DNA of 64,000 nt, from the NCBI RefSeq assembly GCF_001677475.2, contig NZ_CP015229.1. One strand, written 5' to 3'. Below are positions 2,453 to 47,279 of this stretch, piece by piece. Each line of letters opens with the position of its first letter. The first letter of the stretch is position 1. The translations under genes were made by a program, and so were the position numbers. This DNA comes from Escherichia coli. GTDB taxonomy: Bacteria > Pseudomonadota > Gammaproteobacteria > Enterobacterales > Enterobacteriaceae. The notes beneath the pieces are model-generated. The model searched no databases. It was not told the origin of the DNA and worked only from the letters and a program-made list of their open reading frames with translations.

Positions 2453-3016
2453 ATGGAACGTTGCGGCTGGGTGAGTCAGGACCCGCTTTATATTGCCTAC
2501 CATGATAATGAATGGGGCGTGCCTGAAACTGACAGTAAAAAACTGTTCGAAATGATCTGCCTTGAAGGGCAGCAGGCTGGGTTATCGTGGATCACCGTCC
2601 TCAAAAAACGCGAAAACTATCGCGCATGCTTTCATCAGTTCGATCCGGTGAAGGTTGCCGCAATGCAGGTAGAGGATGTCGAAAGACTGGTACAGGACGC
2701 CGGGATTATCCGCCATCGCGGGAAAATTCAGGCAATCATTGGTAATGCGCGGGCGTACCTGCAAATGGAACAGAACGGCGAACCGTTTGCCGACTTTGTC
2801 TGGTCGTTTGTAAATCATCAGCCACAGGTGACACAAGCCACAACGTTGAGCGAAATCCCCACATCTACGCCCGCCTCCGACGCCCTATCTAAGGCACTGA
2901 AAAAACGTGGTTTTAAGTTTGTCGGTACCACAATCTGTTACTCCTTTATGCAGGCATGTGGGCTGGTGAATGATCATGTGGTTGGCTGCTGTTGCTATCC
3001 GGGAAATAAACCATGA
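2453..3016 (+). CDS. tag: DNA-3-methyladenine glycosylase I
   Basis: Internal ATG of ORF 2216..3016 gives a 187-aa protein (MERCGWVSQDPLYIAYHDNEWGVPE...) recognised as Tag; the longer upstream extension is not used. Confidence 0.9.
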   Translation: MERCGWVSQDPLYIAYHDNEWGVPETDSKKLFEMICLEGQQAGLSWITVLKKRENYRACFHQFDPVKVAAMQVEDVERLVQDAGIIRHRGKIQAIIGNARAYLQMEQNGEPFADFVWSFVNHQPQVTQATTLSEIPTSTPASDALSKALKKRGFKFVGTTICYSFMQACGLVNDHVVGCCCYPGNKP

Positions 3017-3453
3017 TTCGGGAAGCGCAACGTTCAGAACTCCCCGCGATCCTCGAACTGTGGCTGGAAAGTACAACCTGGGGGCATCCCTTTATAAAAG
3101 CGAATTACTGGCGTGATTGCATTCCGCTGGTGCGGGATGCGTATCTTGCCAATGCGCAAAACTGGGTCTGGGAAGAAGACGGTAAGCTTCTCGGTTTTGT
3201 CAGCATTATGGAAGGCCGATTTCTGGCAGCAATGTTTGTCGCACCGAAGGCCGTCAGACGCGGTATTGGTAAGGCGCTGATGCAATATGTGCAGCAGCGC
3301 CATCCCCATCTGATGCTGGAGGTTTATCAAAAAAATCAACCGGCGATAGATTTTTACCATGCGCAGGGTTTTCACATTGTCGATTGCGCATGGCAGGATG
3401 AAACCCAACTACCCACCTGGATTATGAGCTGGCCGGTGGATCAAACGCTGTAA
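3013..3453 (+). CDS. yiaC: GNAT-family N-acetyltransferase YiaC
   Basis: 146-aa ORF recognised as YiaC; start overlaps the tag stop by 4 nt (ATGA), suggesting translational coupling. Confidence 0.85.
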
Positions 3454-29549: not shown

Positions 29550-29792
29550 GATCACTCCTTTGCACTAAAACAGCAGAGTGCCAGAGAGCGCGTCTCTACT
29601 GCTTTGATCCAACGAAGGAAATGTTAAAGTTTTGGCACTTGTCCAAAGCGTTATTTGATCGCGCCCTGGTCGTCCCTGACAGTAAATCCCAGTTCATTAG
29701 AAATAGCCTGCGCGGTTTCACGCAGTGGTTTCAGGAGATTTTTCTCCCCCACCTGTTTCAGACGTGATGTCGAAAGAGAAATCGACACGGCA

Positions 29793-30608
29793 CTACGAAT
29801 TGATATGTTCCTTGCTGTAACGCCGCTTCCACGCTGCTGGCGTTAAACCGGTGTGTTTGCGAAAAATCTGCCGGAAATAGCCAACGTCATTAAACCCGCA
29901 CAACGCCGCCACTTCCGTGAGCGATCGCGCTTCGCTAATTAACAGCTTTTCGGCTTCGCGCACCCGCTGGCGATGGATTGCTTCTGTTAACGTCAGATGA
30001 AACACCCGCCGGTAGACGCGCCCAAGATAATCGGCATTGCAGTACAGCTCGCGGGCCAGAAGCGCCGTAGAAAGCGGGCGATGATATTGCGTGCGGATCA
30101 GTTTCTGCGCTTTCCAGGCAAGGGTGGTGCCTGCGCCATCGGCCTGTTCATCAAGACGCGCGTCACGGGTGAGCTGCTGCAAAATGAGCAGCACAATAAA
30201 CTCCAGCGCCGGAGTGCGTTGATGCTTTTCCTGTTCGCTTAAGAACTGGCGAAACAGGGCCACCAGCGCCTGCGGATCGACAACCTTCGTTTGTTGCGGC
30301 ACGCTAAGATGAGTAAGCCAGCGAGGGTCGTTGTCCGGCGCTTTAACCTCAAAATGCAGCCAGTAAAATTTGAGATCGGCGGGAAAATCCTCCACCCCAA
30401 CATGTTGTCGGTTCGGCCAGAGTAATAAACTCTCTCCCGCATCGACCAGAAATATCCGTTCTTCTTCCTGAATCGTTAATCGACCTTTTTCGACAAAGAT
30501 AATTTCCCATGACTCCAGCCGCCTTGCAGGATGCCTCCCTACGCCACGGGAAATAAATAATCCACCATTTTGCACTTTAATCGGTAACGTCATGGATAAT
30601 TCGAGCAT
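29793..30608 (-). CDS. AraC/XylS-family transcriptional regulator (cupin-like N-domain plus C-terminal HTH)
   Basis: 271 aa; N-terminal effector-binding region; C-terminal AraC HTH (...LTEVAALCGFNDVGYFRQIFRKHTGLTPAAWKRR). Divergent from the downstream transporter gene. Start could be ATG 30608 or 30593. Confidence 0.8.
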   Translation of the reverse strand: MLELSMTLPIKVQNGGLFISRGVGRHPARRLESWEIIFVEKGRLTIQEEERIFLVDAGESLLLWPNRQHVGVEDFPADLKFYWLHFEVKAPDNDPRWLTHLSVPQQTKVVDPQALVALFRQFLSEQEKHQRTPALEFIVLLILQQLTRDARLDEQADGAGTTLAWKAQKLIRTQYHRPLSTALLARELYCNADYLGRVYRRVFHLTLTEAIHRQRVREAEKLLISEARSLTEVAALCGFNDVGYFRQIFRKHTGLTPAAWKRRYSKEHINS

Positions 30609-30833
30609 TGATATGTAATTTCCCGCTTATTCATTAATGATTAAACACATTACCTTTTGATTATTAATCAAAAATATTAATTTCACCTGATCCATTTCAC
30701 ACTTTTAAATTCAGGTCGGAATCGTCACCTTTTTTTACTCTTTTCTCGCCTTGTTGATATTCCCGTTCACGGCAGAATTAATCAGGTCATTTCAATAAAA
30801 CTAAAAATTGCTCCCTATTCACGAGGAATATCT

Positions 30834-32234
30834 ATGACCTCTACACCGATTACTACCGCTGATATCGCTAAAGGTAAAATTGACGATGCGTTATCTGTAC
30901 GGGAAAAAATAGGCTACGGCCTGGGTGACGCAGGCGGCACCGTAATAACTTGCCTGATCATGAATTTTCTCACCTTTTTCTACACCGACGTTTTTGGATT
31001 AACTCCGGCGCTGGTTGGCACGCTGTTTATTGCACTGCGCGTGTTTGATGCCATCTCCGACCCGGTGATGGGCGTCATTGCCGACCGGACGCAAAGTCGC
31101 TGGGGGCGCTTTCGCCCGTGGCAGCTATGGATTGCCATTCCCATCGGCATTATCGGCATCCTGACGTTCACCGTGCCAGATGCCAGCATGGGAGTAAAAA
31201 TCGCCTGGGCGTTCGGTACTTACCTGCTCCTTTCAGTCGGTTATACCGCCATCAACGTACCGTACTGCGCGCTGATCAACACCATGACCACCCGCCACAA
31301 TGAAGTGATCTCCTGCCAGTCCTGGCGATTCGTTCTCTGTGGCGTAGCGGGATTTCTGGTTTCGGTAGGCTTACCGTGGATGGTAGATCTCTTCGGTCAG
31401 GGTAATGCCGCGCGCGGCTATCAATTGGGCGTCGGCGTGCTGTGCGCCATTGCCGTGGTGATGTTCCTGTGCTGTTTTTTCTGGGTTCGTGAACGGGTGC
31501 CACTCTCCACAATGGGGAAATTTACCCTGCGCGAACATCTTGCCGGGCTGCGGAACAACGACCAACTGCTGCTGATGCTGGTCATGTCTTTCCTGCTGAT
31601 TAACGTCTTTAACATTCGCGGCGGTGGGTATATGTACTTCATTACCTACGTCTTACAAGGCAGTACGGGCTACACGTCGCTGTTCTTCACCATGGTCACC
31701 TTCGCCTCCATTATCGGCTCGGTGATTGTCAGCCCGTTAACGCGGCGTTTCGATACCGTCAAAATTTACTACTACACCAACCTGCTCCTCGCTGCGCTGG
31801 CGGTGTTGATGTGGTTCCTGCCCTCCGGCCCGGCTTATCAAACGCTGTGGCTGGCGGTGATCCTCGGTAATGGCGTAATTCTTGGCTTCACATTGCCACT
31901 GCACTTCTCATTGATGGCCTTTGCCGATGACTACGGCGAGTGGAAAACCCGCGTACGTTCTTCCGGCATGAACTTCGCCTTCAATCTGTTTTTCATCAAG
32001 CTGGCCTGGGCCTCCAGCGCCGGGATCATCAGCCTGCTGTTTATTTTTGTCGCCTACCAGCCTGGCGTGGAAAACCAGACCGCCAGTTCGCTTGGCGGGA
32101 TCGCGGCGATGGAAACATTACTGCCTGCGCTATTCCACCTGCTGCTGGCAGGGGCGATCCGCTTTTGCAAACTCAATAATCCTATGATGTCACGCATAGC
32201 TACCGACCTGCGTCAGCGTCATGTACAGCCTTAA
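30834..32234 (+). CDS. GPH-family (glycoside-pentoside-hexuronide) cation symporter, MelB/YicJ-like
   Basis: 466 aa, about 12 transmembrane helices; GPH hallmark [25 protein letters not shown]; GAGGA Shine-Dalgarno 8 nt upstream of the ATG. Confidence 0.85.
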
Positions 32235-32244
32235 GGAGCACAAG

Positions 32245-34215
32245 ATGAACATTTCGGAAGTCGATCTGCATAAACTGACGGTCAGCGATCCGTTCCTCGG
32301 TCAGTACCAACAACTGGTCCGCGACGTGGTGATTCCTTATCAGTGGGATGCCTTGAACGATCGTATCCCAGAAGCGGAACCCAGCCATGCGATTGAAAAC
32401 TTTCGCATTGCCGCCGGACTTCAGGAGGGTGAATTTTACGGGATGGTGTTTCAGGACAGCGACGTCGCCAAATGGCTGGAAGCGGTAGCCTGGTCGCTGT
32501 GCCAGAAGCCGGACGCCGAACTGGAAAAAACCGCCGACGAGGTAATCGAACTGATCGCCTCCGCCCAATGCGAAGACGGCTATCTCAATACTTACTTTAC
32601 GGTAAAAGTACCCGAAGAACGCTGGAGCAATCTGGCGGAGTGTCATGAACTTTACTGCGCCGGTCATCTGATTGAAGCCGGAGTCGCCTTCTTCCAGGCC
32701 ACGGGCAAGCGGCGCTTGCTGGAAGTGGTTTGCCGTCTGGCCGATCATATCGACAGCGTATTTGGTCCAGATGAAAGTAAGTTACACGGTTACCCTGGTC
32801 ACCCGGAAATTGAACTGGCACTGATGCGTCTGTATGAAGTGACCGAAGAGCCGCGCTACCTGGCACTGACGAACTATTTTGTCGAACAGCGTGGTGCGCA
32901 ACCGCACTATTACGACCAGGAATATGAAAAGCGCGGGCAGACCTCGCACTGGCACACCTACGGCCCGGCGTGGATGGTGAAAGATAAAGCCTACAGCCAG
33001 GCGCATTTGCCCATCGCACAGCAACAAACCGCCATCGGACATGCAGTACGCTTTGTCTATCTGATGACCGGCGTCGCGCATCTCGCGCGTTTAAGTCACG
33101 ATGACAGCAAGCGTCAGGACTGCCTGCGGCTGTGGAACAATATGGCCCAGCGTCAGTTATATATTACCGGCGGCATTGGCTCGCAAAGCAGCGGCGAAGC
33201 GTTCACTAGCGATTACGATCTGCCGAATGACACGGTATACGCTGAAAGTTGCGCCTCCATCGGCCTGATGATGTTTGCCCGACGAATGCTGGAAATGGAA
33301 GGCGACAGTCAATATGCCGATGTGATGGAGCGCGCACTGTACAACACCGTGCTCGGCGGCATGGCGCTGGATGGCAAACATTTCTTCTATGTGAATCCGC
33401 TGGAAGTACATCCAAAATCGCTGAAATTCAACCATATCTACGATCACGTTAAACCGATCCGCCAGCGTTGGTTTGGCTGCGCTTGTTGTCCGCCAAATAT
33501 CGCCCGCGTGCTGACCTCGATTGGTCATTATCTCTACACGCCGCGTGAAGATGCGTTGTATATCAACATATACGCAGGAAACAGCATGGAAGTGCCGGTA
33601 GAAAATGGCACGCTGCGCCTGCGGGTTAGCGGGAACTATCCGTGGCAGGAGCAGGTGACGATTGCGGTTGAATCGCCCCAGCCGGTACGTCATACGCTGG
33701 CTTTACGTCTGCCGGACTGGTGCACACAGCCGCAGATCATATTGAATGGGGAAGAGGTCGAGCAGGATATTCGTAAAGGGTATTTGCACATTACCCGCGA
33801 ATGGCAGGAGGGCGATACGCTGAATCTGACTTTGCCGATGCCGGTACGCCGCGTTTACGGTAACCCGCTGGTGCGTCACGTCGCCGGAAAAGTGGCGATT
33901 CAGCGCGGCCCGCTGGTGTATTGCCTGGAACAGGCCGACAACGGCGAGTCACTGCATAATCTGTGGCTGCCCACCGATGCGCCATTTACGACATTTGAAG
34001 GCAAGGGATTGTTTAGCCATAAGATCTTAATCCAGGCACCGGGTTACCGGTATGAACAGAGCAATCCAGAGCAGCAACCGCTGTGGCATTACGACAGCGC
34101 GCCAGCCAAACGCCAGACGCAAACTCTGACCTTTATCCCGTGGTTTAGCTGGGCCAACCGGGGTGAAGGCGAAATGCGGATCTGGGTGAATGAGGAAAAG
34201 CATTGCCATCCGTAG
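32245..34215 (+). CDS. Glycoside hydrolase family 127 (DUF1680, beta-L-arabinofuranosidase-like) protein
   Basis: Start at ATG 32245 (AAGGAG Shine-Dalgarno at 32233..32238), 656 aa. Motifs E-S-C (YAESCASIG) and C-A-C-C-P-P-N (WFGCACCPPNIARVL) match what I recall of the Zn/Cys catalytic centre of GH127 enzymes. Immediately follows the GPH symporter. Confidence 0.75.
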   Translation: MNISEVDLHKLTVSDPFLGQYQQLVRDVVIPYQWDALNDRIPEAEPSHAIENFRIAAGLQEGEFYGMVFQDSDVAKWLEAVAWSLCQKPDAELEKTADEVIELIASAQCEDGYLNTYFTVKVPEERWSNLAECHELYCAGHLIEAGVAFFQATGKRRLLEVVCRLADHIDSVFGPDESKLHGYPGHPEIELALMRLYEVTEEPRYLALTNYFVEQRGAQPHYYDQEYEKRGQTSHWHTYGPAWMVKDKAYSQAHLPIAQQQTAIGHAVRFVYLMTGVAHLARLSHDDSKRQDCLRLWNNMAQRQLYITGGIGSQSSGEAFTSDYDLPNDTVYAESCASIGLMMFARRMLEMEGDSQYADVMERALYNTVLGGMALDGKHFFYVNPLEVHPKSLKFNHIYDHVKPIRQRWFGCACCPPNIARVLTSIGHYLYTPREDALYINIYAGNSMEVPVENGTLRLRVSGNYPWQEQVTIAVESPQPVRHTLALRLPDWCTQPQIILNGEEVEQDIRKGYLHITREWQEGDTLNLTLPMPVRRVYGNPLVRHVAGKVAIQRGPLVYCLEQADNGESLHNLWLPTDAPFTTFEGKGLFSHKILIQAPGYRYEQSNPEQQPLWHYDSAPAKRQTQTLTFIPWFSWANRGEGEMRIWVNEEKHCHP

Positions 34216-34217
34216 GT

Positions 34218-34293
34218 TGGATAAGGCACTCGCGCCGCATCCAACGTAAGGAGCACATTGCCTGATGCGACGCTTAACACGTCTTATCAGGCA
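34218..34293. repeat. REP-like palindromic elements
   Basis: GGTTGGATAAGGCACTCGCGCCGCATCCAAC and GCCTGATGCGACGCTTAACACGTCTTATCAGGC between the GH127 gene and yiaT. Confidence 0.7.
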
Positions 34294-34344
34294 TACAAGT
34301 CGGTGCGAGAGCGTAGGCCAGCCGCACCGACATCCACCGGTGAA

Positions 34345-35085
34345 TTAAAAACGCCAGCTCACGCCGGTGACAAAGGTAAAACTCTCATTACGATCAATCA
34401 TCGGGCTGTCGGTAATCTCTTCCGGCAGCTCGCTGTATCCTGCGCTCGCCATCAATACGACGTGCTCTCCTATCGGGTATTTTGCCGTCAGGCTGACATA
34501 GGGCACCCAGGAATCCTGCGCGGAATAACTTGCCAGACCGCTACGACGGGACTCACTCTCTGAAATGCCATAGTAATAGTCACTGAAATTCTCGTCATAA
34601 TAGAGAACGCCCAGCGCAGGTGTCAGCGACAGACGACCTATCTGCATTTTGTGGAATACCGATAGCTCCCCCACCCAGCCGTTGCTGTTATCCAGAACGT
34701 CCGCAGCTGCAGAGGCTTTCACGGTTCCCCAACGCTCGTGGTGATACCAGGCAACCCCCGCCATAGCCGTACTATCACGCTTATCAAGCTGTTGCATGGC
34801 ATAATCGTCATTATCGGCAGGGTCAAATTCCAGCGGCATCCAGGATGCGGTCAGGCTAAGTTCATTTTTTTCACTTTGCGACAGAATAAAACCTAACGTG
34901 GTCTGACGAACATAAAAAGAATCACCTTCATAACTAATCAGGGGAATTGCCTTTGTATTTTCATTATAACCGCGATAAGGCGATTCATTATAAGCCGCAC
35001 CGGCACCAATGGATAATTCAGAAGCAGTTGCGCTTGCCATAAAAGGCAACGCAAATAACGCCACAATATTGCGGTTAATTAACAT
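34345..35085 (-). CDS. yiaT: Outer-membrane protein YiaT (MipA/OmpV family)
   Basis: 246 aa; signal peptide (ALFALPFMASATASE); beta-strand-rich; C-terminal ...GVSWRF with terminal Phe typical of outer-membrane beta-barrels. Confidence 0.85.
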   Translation of the reverse strand: MLINRNIVALFALPFMASATASELSIGAGAAYNESPYRGYNENTKAIPLISYEGDSFYVRQTTLGFILSQSEKNELSLTASWMPLEFDPADNDDYAMQQLDKRDSTAMAGVAWYHHERWGTVKASAAADVLDNSNGWVGELSVFHKMQIGRLSLTPALGVLYYDENFSDYYYGISESESRRSGLASYSAQDSWVPYVSLTAKYPIGEHVVLMASAGYSELPEEITDSPMIDRNESFTFVTGVSWRF

Positions 35086-46743: not shown

Positions 46744-47279
46744 ATCTGCCTCGGATTCACGCTTATCAGTGTTGTTTTTTGGCTGGCAGCCGGAAGGGAG
46801 TCAGGCTGATACTTTGACATTAATCTGCGTTTGCCAATCTCGCCATCACACCGAAGGATAATTTTAAAAGGCGATGAGTTGCTCAGTTACAAAACTGTCT
46901 TAAGGCAAAGTCAGAACATGTTGCAGATCACATCAGGTGAATTACCGAAGAAAATATCTTGTGATTCAGATCACAAAAATCTAACAAACCATCAAAACAA
47001 AAATGTGACATTACTCACATTTAAATGCCATTTTTAGCGAAAATCGCCGCCTTGTTGCTTTTTTACACAAGCGTTTTGTGATGAACGTCACGCCAATTAC
47101 CTCTCTACCCCCTATATTTATGTGACTGATATCACACAAAAGACCGTCGACTGGACAGTTAACCGATTCAGTGCCAGATTTCGCAGTATCTACAAGGTCC
47201 GGCTACCTCTGCCGCCACATTAACAAAAAACCTCGGGCTTCCAGCCTGCGCGACAGCAAACATAAGAAGGGGTGTTTTT
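46744..47279 (+). promoter_or_regulatory. mtlADR promoter/operator region
   Basis: 536-bp AT-rich non-coding region upstream of mtlA; known to carry the sigma70 promoter with CRP and MtlR operators. Individual sites were not mapped here. Confidence 0.5.

Follow-up and report, generated by a model that had tools for sequence, protein, structure and literature searches.

A conserved divergent control region, probably of the enteric sugar-operon type, between an AraC-family regulator gene and a symporter/GH127 operon in Escherichia coli and related bacteria

Which sequences in the short spacer between an AraC-family regulator gene and a divergent symporter operon of E. coli control the two transcription units, and do the palindromes within this spacer serve as operators of the regulator? 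The window analyzed here, a stretch of 64 kb, is E. coli chromosome, with thousands of E. coli genomes matching positions 29700-34300. By RefSeq annotation, its gene order in this neighborhood is malS, avtA, ysaA, a truncated remnant of the IclR-family gene yiaJ, the AraC-family regulator, an MFS transporter, a GH127 glycoside hydrolase, yiaT and yiaU. The locus itself comprises:

29793-30608, minus strand: AraC-family regulator gene (271 aa), encoding an AraC-type ligand-binding domain and a double helix-turn-helix DNA-binding domain
30609-30833, unstranded: divergent spacer of 225 bp, AT-rich (31.6% GC), between the start codons of the regulator (30608, minus strand) and the symporter (30834)
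30834-32234, plus strand: GPH-family (MFS_2) glycoside:cation symporter gene (TIGR00792, 331.8 bits against a cut-off of 231; Pfam MFS_2)
32221-34215, plus strand: GH127 beta-L-arabinofuranosidase-like gene (Pfam GH127 catalytic, middle and C-terminal domains)

The first-pass annotation had delimited this spacer correctly, from one start codon to the other, and had described it as the control region that separates the divergent AraC-family regulator and symporter genes; the gene assignments hold, and the spacer contains strongly conserved cis-elements. The regulator, labeled an AraC family transcriptional regulator in RefSeq, matches the Pfam domains AraC_binding (residues 26-132), HTH_18 (184-263) and HTH_AraC, and falls below every NCBIfam equivalog cut-off, its top match being AraC with 61 bits versus the 208 needed. 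For the GH127 gene, RefSeq places the start at 32245, i.e., 11 nt past the symporter stop codon. Since the encoded enzyme is close in sequence to PDB 4QJY (E=1e-234) and to HypBA1 (PDB 3WKW; E=1e-151), the substrate class of the operon is likely that of the beta-L-arabinofuranosides.

Among 5426 complete E. coli genomes, the module or its spacer was found in 2312-2321 (~43%), O157:H7 and a BL21-type B strain included. Scanning one genome per species retrieved 79 loci with a regulator 61-94% identical to the present one, almost all of which have the symporter and GH127 genes divergent from the regulator gene. This divergent layout is kept in the 74 loci in which both start codons could be located, and the orthologous spacers measure 215-261 bp, except for one with an insertion of ~140 bp. 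Genera carrying the module include Escherichia, Citrobacter, Salmonella (diarizonae), Enterobacter, Klebsiella, Raoultella, Kluyvera, Lelliottia, Buttiauxella, Pantoea and Mixta, among others. A literature search found no description of this enterobacterial three-gene module or of its control region.

To locate conserved elements, 73 distinct orthologous spacers from ~25 genera were aligned, Leclercia, Kosakonia, Yokenella, Trabulsiella and Cedecea being represented as well. Conservation is strongest over positions 30686-30787, mostly to the right of the short palindromes, with near-invariant stretches at 30689-30692, 30697-30701, 30712-30740, 30749-30756 and 30772-30782, and is weak at 30629-30656 and 30671-30688. 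On the symporter side, the footprint and the adjoining leader contain the following elements, those of the strongest conservation outside the block being marked as such:

30683-30704, unstranded: CRP-like site, core CCTGA-TCCATT-TCACA (30686-30701), centered at 30693.5
30689-30701: GATC-N4-TCACA, strongest-conservation element
30712-30742, plus strand: best-conserved block, cAgGTCGGAATcgtCa.CTTTTTaTACTT, with a T-run at 30730-30736; candidate regulator site at about -73 to -43 of the predicted start
30749-30756, plus strand: CCTTGTTG, strongest-conservation element, in which TTGTTG (30751-30756) is the predicted weak -35 element of the symporter promoter
30772-30782: GCAgAAT.AAt, strongest-conservation element
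30773-30778, plus strand: CAGAAT, predicted -10 element of the symporter/GH127 operon, with a predicted start at ~30785
30785-30787: GGT, strongest-conservation element
30823-30827, plus strand: GAGGA, symporter Shine-Dalgarno sequence, strongest-conservation element, with the conserved form cgaGGagt at 6-7 nt before the ATG

Not only the sequence of these elements but also their spacing is preserved. The offset from GATC to GTCGGAAT is 26 bp in 72 of the 73 spacers, that from GTCGGAAT to CTTGTTG is 35 bp in 70 and that from GTCGGAAT to CA(G/A)AAT is 58 bp in 71, while the distance between CA(G/A)AAT and the symporter ATG varies from 51 to 97 bp. No indels were seen between box B (described below) and the -10 element; an indel-free core of ~120 bp next to a stretch whose length varies would be expected of a protein-binding promoter region and an untranslated leader.

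Promoter prediction, a check that the first-pass annotation had proposed for the spacer, was carried out in two ways. A scan of positions 30500-30950 with strict sigma-70 and terminator consensus sequences returned no strong promoter and nothing else, which fits activator dependence, as activator-dependent promoters are weak. A simple sigma-70 matrix applied to all orthologs, by contrast, did single out one consistent plus-strand position: the hexamer at 30773 ranked top, with a score of at least 4 in 71 of 73 spacers. Of 72 spacers, 49 have CAGAAT at this hexamer and 20 have CAAAAT, both forms keeping the A (position 2) and T (position 6) that are critical, and TTGTTG occurs in 62 of 72. With 3/6 consensus matches for TTGTTG, 4/6 for CA(G/A)AAT and 16 bp between the two, the symporter/GH127 operon would thus be transcribed from a weak sigma-70 promoter, giving a leader of ~49 nt in the window and of other lengths in other species. 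A sigma-54 promoter (GG-N10-GC) at 30770-30784 was also considered, and the sequence does not fit it.

As for the leader itself, an Rfam scan of 30450-30950 at E<=1 yielded no match and hence no known riboswitch or leader RNA, and the predicted fold of 30785-30860 is unremarkable (z = -1.05). The start codon and the predicted 5′ end are complementary over 7 bp (AGGTCAT/ATGACCT); this complementarity shows no covariation in other genera and was discarded.

Immediately upstream of the predicted -10 element and its spacer lies the most conserved part of the region. Most columns of the 30712-30742 block, with the 29 bp of GGTCGGAATcgtCa.CTTTTTaTACTT at 30712-30740, are at least 95% identical over ~25 genera, and together with CCTTGTTG this block makes up a near-invariant, indel-free stretch of ~45 bp, 30712-30756, at about -73 to -29 of the predicted start. 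The T-run that the first-pass annotation had listed alongside the palindromes is real (seven T at 30730-30736) and falls inside this block. Judging from position, we infer 30712-30756 to be the leading candidate for binding by the AraC-family regulator; the palindromes lie 45-100 bp to its left. AraC at I1-I2 spans about -72 to -35 and RhaS -81 to -32 at their respective promoters. MelR site 2′ occupies a position comparable to that of the block (PMC2377442).

The internal organization of this candidate site is less clear. CCTTGTTG may serve as its promoter-proximal end as well as carrying the -35 element, since CCTTGTT repeats a CCTTTTT found 21 bp upstream. In the conservation profile, this repeat, CCTT(T/G)TT at a 21-bp offset, has a weak score, and two clearly similar half-sites were not resolved in the block. 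By-eye comparison with the AraC half-site consensus (TAGC-N7-TCCATA) revealed no recognizable half-site within 30712-30756. The block motif occurs once per locus; neither the 64-kb window nor the flanks of 80 loci contain additional copies that would mark further regulon members. In the mechanism that we propose, the sugar-bound regulator would occupy 30712-30756 (about -73 to -35), reaching or overlapping the -35 element, and would recruit RNA polymerase from there. Its ligand is probably a beta-L-arabinofuranoside or L-arabinose, and induction would need both GTCGGAAT and CTTTTTTTACT.

Next to the block, on its distal side, is the CRP-like site. Its core matches TGTGA-N6-TCACA at 8 of 10 positions in the window and mostly at 7 of 10 in the orthologs; a match of 8/10 arises by chance in 8% of shuffled spacers. 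The two half-sites differ in how they are conserved: TCACA is invariant (72/72), and the left half keeps only GA (with the following TC), invariant or nearly so, its TGT positions being mostly C. The center of the site lies ~91.5 bp from the predicted symporter start, and CRP is centered at -93.5 at araBAD and at -92.5 at rhaBAD. We take cAMP-CRP to be the presumptive ligand of GATC-N4-TCACA, binding of which, at about -91.5 of the symporter promoter, would be comparable to the arrangement at araBAD and rhaBAD.

The same conservation could be read differently, namely as that of a third, distal half-site of the regulator, in which GATC-N4-TCACA-N-TT would provide TCACACTTTT (30697) as a repeat of TCACCTTTTT (30725) and TCGCCTTGTT (30746). 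Indeed, the best direct repeat in the conservation profile pairs 30697-30712 with 30725-30740 (score 9.4 versus 4.4 +/- 1.3 for the null), and the repeat at the 21-bp offset ranks next; however, the 28-bp offset of the former is out of helical phase with the latter, and the T-rich composition of the region raises repeat scores. The poor left half, with its mostly 7/10 core in orthologs, and the flanking TT, which is invariant and thus better conserved than CRP flanks usually are, also speak for a regulator half-site. Yet the invariant GA and TC stand exactly 6 bp from TCACA, as in TGTGA-N6-TCACA, and the supposed copies are unequal, TCAC of the middle one being 40-90% conserved versus 100% for TCACA at 30697. 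Moreover, the ara, rha and mel promoters regularly have a CRP site beside that of the activator (for mel, see PMC2377442). We consider a third half-site possible but doubtful, and retain CRP as the candidate factor at this position.

Toward the regulator gene lie two further elements:

30657-30667, minus strand: box B, a conserved asymmetric 11-mer, TTGATTATTAA, containing AATAAT (30665 down to 30660) as a predicted -10 element, with a predicted start at ~30653
30621-30628, minus strand: TCCCGCTT (AAGCGGGA on the regulator strand), 60-90% column identity over 73 spacers, 13-20 nt upstream of the regulator ATG

The latter may be a Shine-Dalgarno-like or leader element. Box B, which reads TTAATAATCAA on the minus strand, is unique in the 64-kb window. 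It is found as exact TTGATTATTAA in 34 of 72 spacers and as one-mismatch variants in most others, with AATAAT at a fixed offset in 57 of 72. Box B is separated from the GATC of the CRP-like site by 32 bp in 56 spacers and by 31 bp in 5, and the centers of the CRP-like site and of AATAAT are 31 bp apart in 56 of 61 orthologs, as compared with 32 bp in the canonical class II arrangement. In the proposed model, the CRP-like site would be shared: it would lie at about -40.5 to -41.5 of a leftward promoter with AATAAT in TTGATTATTAA as its -10 element, from which CRP would drive the regulator gene, as with melR. Transcription of melR is fully dependent on CRP bound over its -35 region (PMC2377442). 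As an explanation of the 11-mer, we favor the -10 region of the regulator promoter over an operator dyad; when a -35 term was included in the sigma-70 matrix, a minus-strand -10 at 30706 down to 30701 ranked above AATAAT.

Box B is missing in a clade comprising Buttiauxella, Cedecea and Atlantibacter, in which everything to its right is kept; the regulator promoter must therefore differ there. This absence also bears on whether TTGATTATTAA, alone or with its symmetric extension, serves chiefly as an operator bound by a protein, be it as an autoregulatory or looping half-site of the regulator, akin to MelR site R or araO, or as a site for some other conserved factor. Eleven contiguous conserved positions, plus A30670 at ~90%, are more than a lone -10 hexamer requires; box B keeps a fixed distance to the rest of the module; and its dyad is found sporadically, in Escherichia, C. 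amalonaticus, Enterobacter mori, Yokenella and a Pantoea. But the clade lacking box B retains the same regulator and the same block, to which box B bears no sequence similarity, and where its sequence diverges, a -10-like hexamer persists: GATAAT in Mixta, GATATT in Trabulsiella and AATAAT in the TTGATTATTCA variant. Likewise, by-eye comparison of box B and the palindromes with consensus sequences gave no convincing Fur, ArgR, IHF, Cra, KdgR or LacI-family site. A principal role of box B as an operator appears unlikely to us, and the -10 region of the regulator promoter remains our preferred assignment, although the tight conservation means that box B may have a second, autoregulatory role like that of MelR site R.

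The palindromes proposed as operators of the divergent AraC-family regulator are both present in the sequence:

30634-30644, unstranded: palindrome 1, TTAATGATTAA, with 5-bp arms around a 1-nt center and 10-60% column identity
30655-30673, unstranded: palindrome 2, TTTTGATTA-T-TAATCAAAA, a perfect 19-bp dyad (9+1+9) with TGATTATTAATCA (30659-30671; 6-bp arms) as its core

As first described, with arms of 5 and 6 bp, they are at chance level, perfect palindromes occurring in 74% of dinucleotide-preserving shuffles of the spacer for a minimum arm of 5 bp and in 31% for one of 6 bp. The second, however, is longer than first measured, and arms of at least 9 bp were obtained in only 0.8% of such shuffles; in addition, TGATTA/TAATCA occurs four times in the spacer versus 0.32 times expected. 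There is thus a non-random signal at the second palindrome and none at the first.

Conservation separates the two as well. Within the genus, Escherichia sp. E1V33 and E. whittamii already lack palindrome 1, which sits in the least conserved part of the spacer (30629-30656); only 3 of 72 orthologs show any palindrome there with arms of 5 bp or more. Palindrome 1 is probably an E. coli-specific chance feature in the variable leader of the regulator gene. Of palindrome 2, the left arm and center are kept in most genera, and the full dyad in Escherichia and Citrobacter amalonaticus. Only 10 of 72 orthologs have the extension of its right arm, TCAA, and only 12 of 62 reach arms of 6 bp or more; the most common arm length, 3-4 bp, is what the 11-mer alone gives. 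A dyad-symmetric operator of the LacI/GalR, Fur or ArgR style would have its symmetry maintained across orthologous promoters, which is not the case here. Palindrome 2 is thus retained as an asymmetric 11-mer rather than as a dyad; its symmetry may be viewed as an extension, particular to some lineages, around the regulator promoter's -10 region.

These observations leave little room for TTAATGATTAA and TGATTATTAATCA as operators of the regulator, a role that we regard as improbable. The rarity of the 19-bp dyad and the excess of TGATTA/TAATCA are in its favor, as is the location of palindrome 2, which in our model lies near the start of the regulator transcript, where AraC-family autoregulation often takes place (MelR site R; PMC2377442). 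The sites known for AraC-family proteins lack symmetry and span ~17-20 bp, being recognized through two helix-turn-helix motifs, as exemplified by the 18-bp MelR sites, as opposed to dyads of 11-13 bp (PMC2377442). For direct activation of the symporter promoter, the palindromes, 110-150 bp upstream of its predicted -10 element, would be too distant, whereas 30712-30756 is far better conserved and located where activator sites usually are. The most far-reaching scenario, in which box B is the operator of an unrecognized conserved factor or an unusual autoregulatory site and the invariant GATC renders a shared CRP/regulator region sensitive to Dam methylation, leading to heterogeneous (bistable) expression of a plant-glycan utilization operon across Enterobacteriaceae, strikes us as very improbable.

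Three other features of the spacer were examined and set aside. The only small ORF, of 22 aa on the minus strand, lies in unconserved sequence. An inverted repeat between 30675-30696 and 30776-30797 is 73% complementary, its left arm falling in an unconserved stretch, and is attributed to chance. Finally, a direct repeat, ATTAATCA (30663 and 30777), is common only to the Escherichia/Citrobacter lineage.

Taken together, we consider it reasonably probable, on sequence grounds, that the spacer acts as a compact two-way promoter region of the enteric sugar-operon type, served by the AraC-family activator and probably by CRP, in which the palindromes are not operators. The closest model is melR/melAB, where an AraC-family regulator gene likewise faces a divergent operon for a glycoside hydrolase and a GPH-family cation symporter. 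MelR sites are 18 bp long, and the divergent melAB promoter needs both MelR and CRP (PMC2377442). The likeness extends to a regulator promoter with CRP over its -35 region and a structural promoter with regulator plus CRP, both of which are predictions in the present locus. At the same time, the two systems differ in several respects. The mel starts are 237 bp apart, with five MelR and two CRP sites, as compared to predicted starts ~132 bp apart, one CRP-like site and one ~45-bp block here; the gene order is reversed, the symporter preceding the hydrolase, which is a GH127 enzyme instead of MelA. Nor is the regulator a MelR ortholog, scoring 38.6 bits against the NCBIfam MelR cut-off of 253.

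With araC/araBAD and rhaSR/rhaBAD, the region shares a divergent regulator gene, a candidate activator site abutting the -35 element of a weak promoter and, just upstream, a CRP-like site at about -92. The 21-bp CCTT(T/G)TT repeat recalls the 21-bp spacing of I1 and I2 in ara. In contrast to those systems, the block has no recognizable AraC half-site and the regulator remains far from the AraC cut-off (61 versus 208 bits); unlike in ara, there is no sign of a distant looping operator. The GH127 loci of Geobacillus stearothermophilus (4QJY) and Bifidobacterium longum (HypBA1, 3WKW), for their part, are Gram-positive and have another gene context.

The spacer is thus an apparently undescribed member of the known ara, rha and mel type, adding one more case of a well-understood architecture rather than a new principle. 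As K-12 is without the module, K-12-centered regulatory databases miss it, and yet it is carried by many Enterobacteriaceae and Erwiniaceae. The footprint provides exact, testable positions for the promoters, for the candidate activator site and for the CRP-like site. These may be of use in studies of enteric growth on plant-derived beta-L-arabinofuranosides, such as extensin or arabinan fragments, as well as in the search for a new sugar-inducible expression switch.

Within the predicted CRP-like element of the divergent control region (GATC-N4-TCACA, core 30686-30701), the GATC at 30689-30692, a Dam methylation site, was present in 71 of the 72 orthologous spacers, all except that of Salmonella diarizonae, and was more strongly conserved across these spacers than the adjoining positions of the CRP consensus. 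This near-invariant GATC may be no more than a consequence of the TGTGATC consensus, but a separate role is also possible. Elsewhere in the window, four near-perfect CRP cores (TGTGATTCAGATCACA, TGTGACATTACTCACA, TGTGATGAACGTCACG and TGTGACTGATATCACA) lie within ~180 bp at 46960-47136, a cluster that is probably a sugar-operon promoter with multiple CRP sites, for example that of mtlA (putative).

At the end of the spacer next to the gene for the AraC-family regulator, two further conserved sequences were recorded:

30611-30628, regulator on the minus strand: ATAT plus TCCCGCTT (AAGCGGGA on the regulator's strand), conservation 60-90%, distance upstream of the regulator ATG 3-20 nt.

Here, GGGA stands 12 nt from the regulator ATG, which is long as Shine-Dalgarno spacing. 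On the symporter side, the symporter mRNA has AGGTCAT at its predicted 5′ end (30784-30790), a perfect complement of the ATGACCT that includes the start codon (30834-30840), and the predicted fold of the leader has a paired GGUCAU/AUGACC core. This fold was not significant, and among the aligned orthologous spacers the pairing showed no covariation in genera that have GGTAC instead. Downstream, the longest open reading frame of the GH127 gene begins at 32221, overlapping the end of the symporter gene by 14 nt, and the RefSeq start lies at 32245, 11 nt past the symporter stop; with either start, the symporter and GH127 genes form a single, tightly coupled operon.

In Buttiauxella izardii the spacer measures 383 bp, ~140 bp more than in its relatives, and therefore carries an insertion. 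At three further loci (L067, L072 and L076) the matches to the symporter and/or GH127 genes are truncated or fragmented, suggesting these to be pseudogenes. Finally, the locus of E. coli ETEC4071 has an IS1 element (locus positions 2692-3389) within the spacer, ~140 bp from the regulator start. Because its similarity to the window stops at spacer position 30735 and selB comes next, where the symporter and GH127 genes would otherwise stand, this strain has either lost the operon or carries it in rearranged form.

The locus is also mosaic among E. coli strains, as seen at the module's flanks (29650-29792 and 34216-34345 in the window; collected loci L001 and L081). According to the RefSeq annotation, the module adjoins a truncated remnant of yiaJ (IclR) in the window strain, which is without yiaK-sgbE. 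In T7 Express, an E. coli B strain, the module directly follows lyxK, an sgbH homologue (annotated as ulaD), sgbU and an sgbE homologue (annotated as araD). K-12 has yiaJ-sgbE and is not known to carry the module. Overall, the module is carried by ~43% of complete E. coli genomes.
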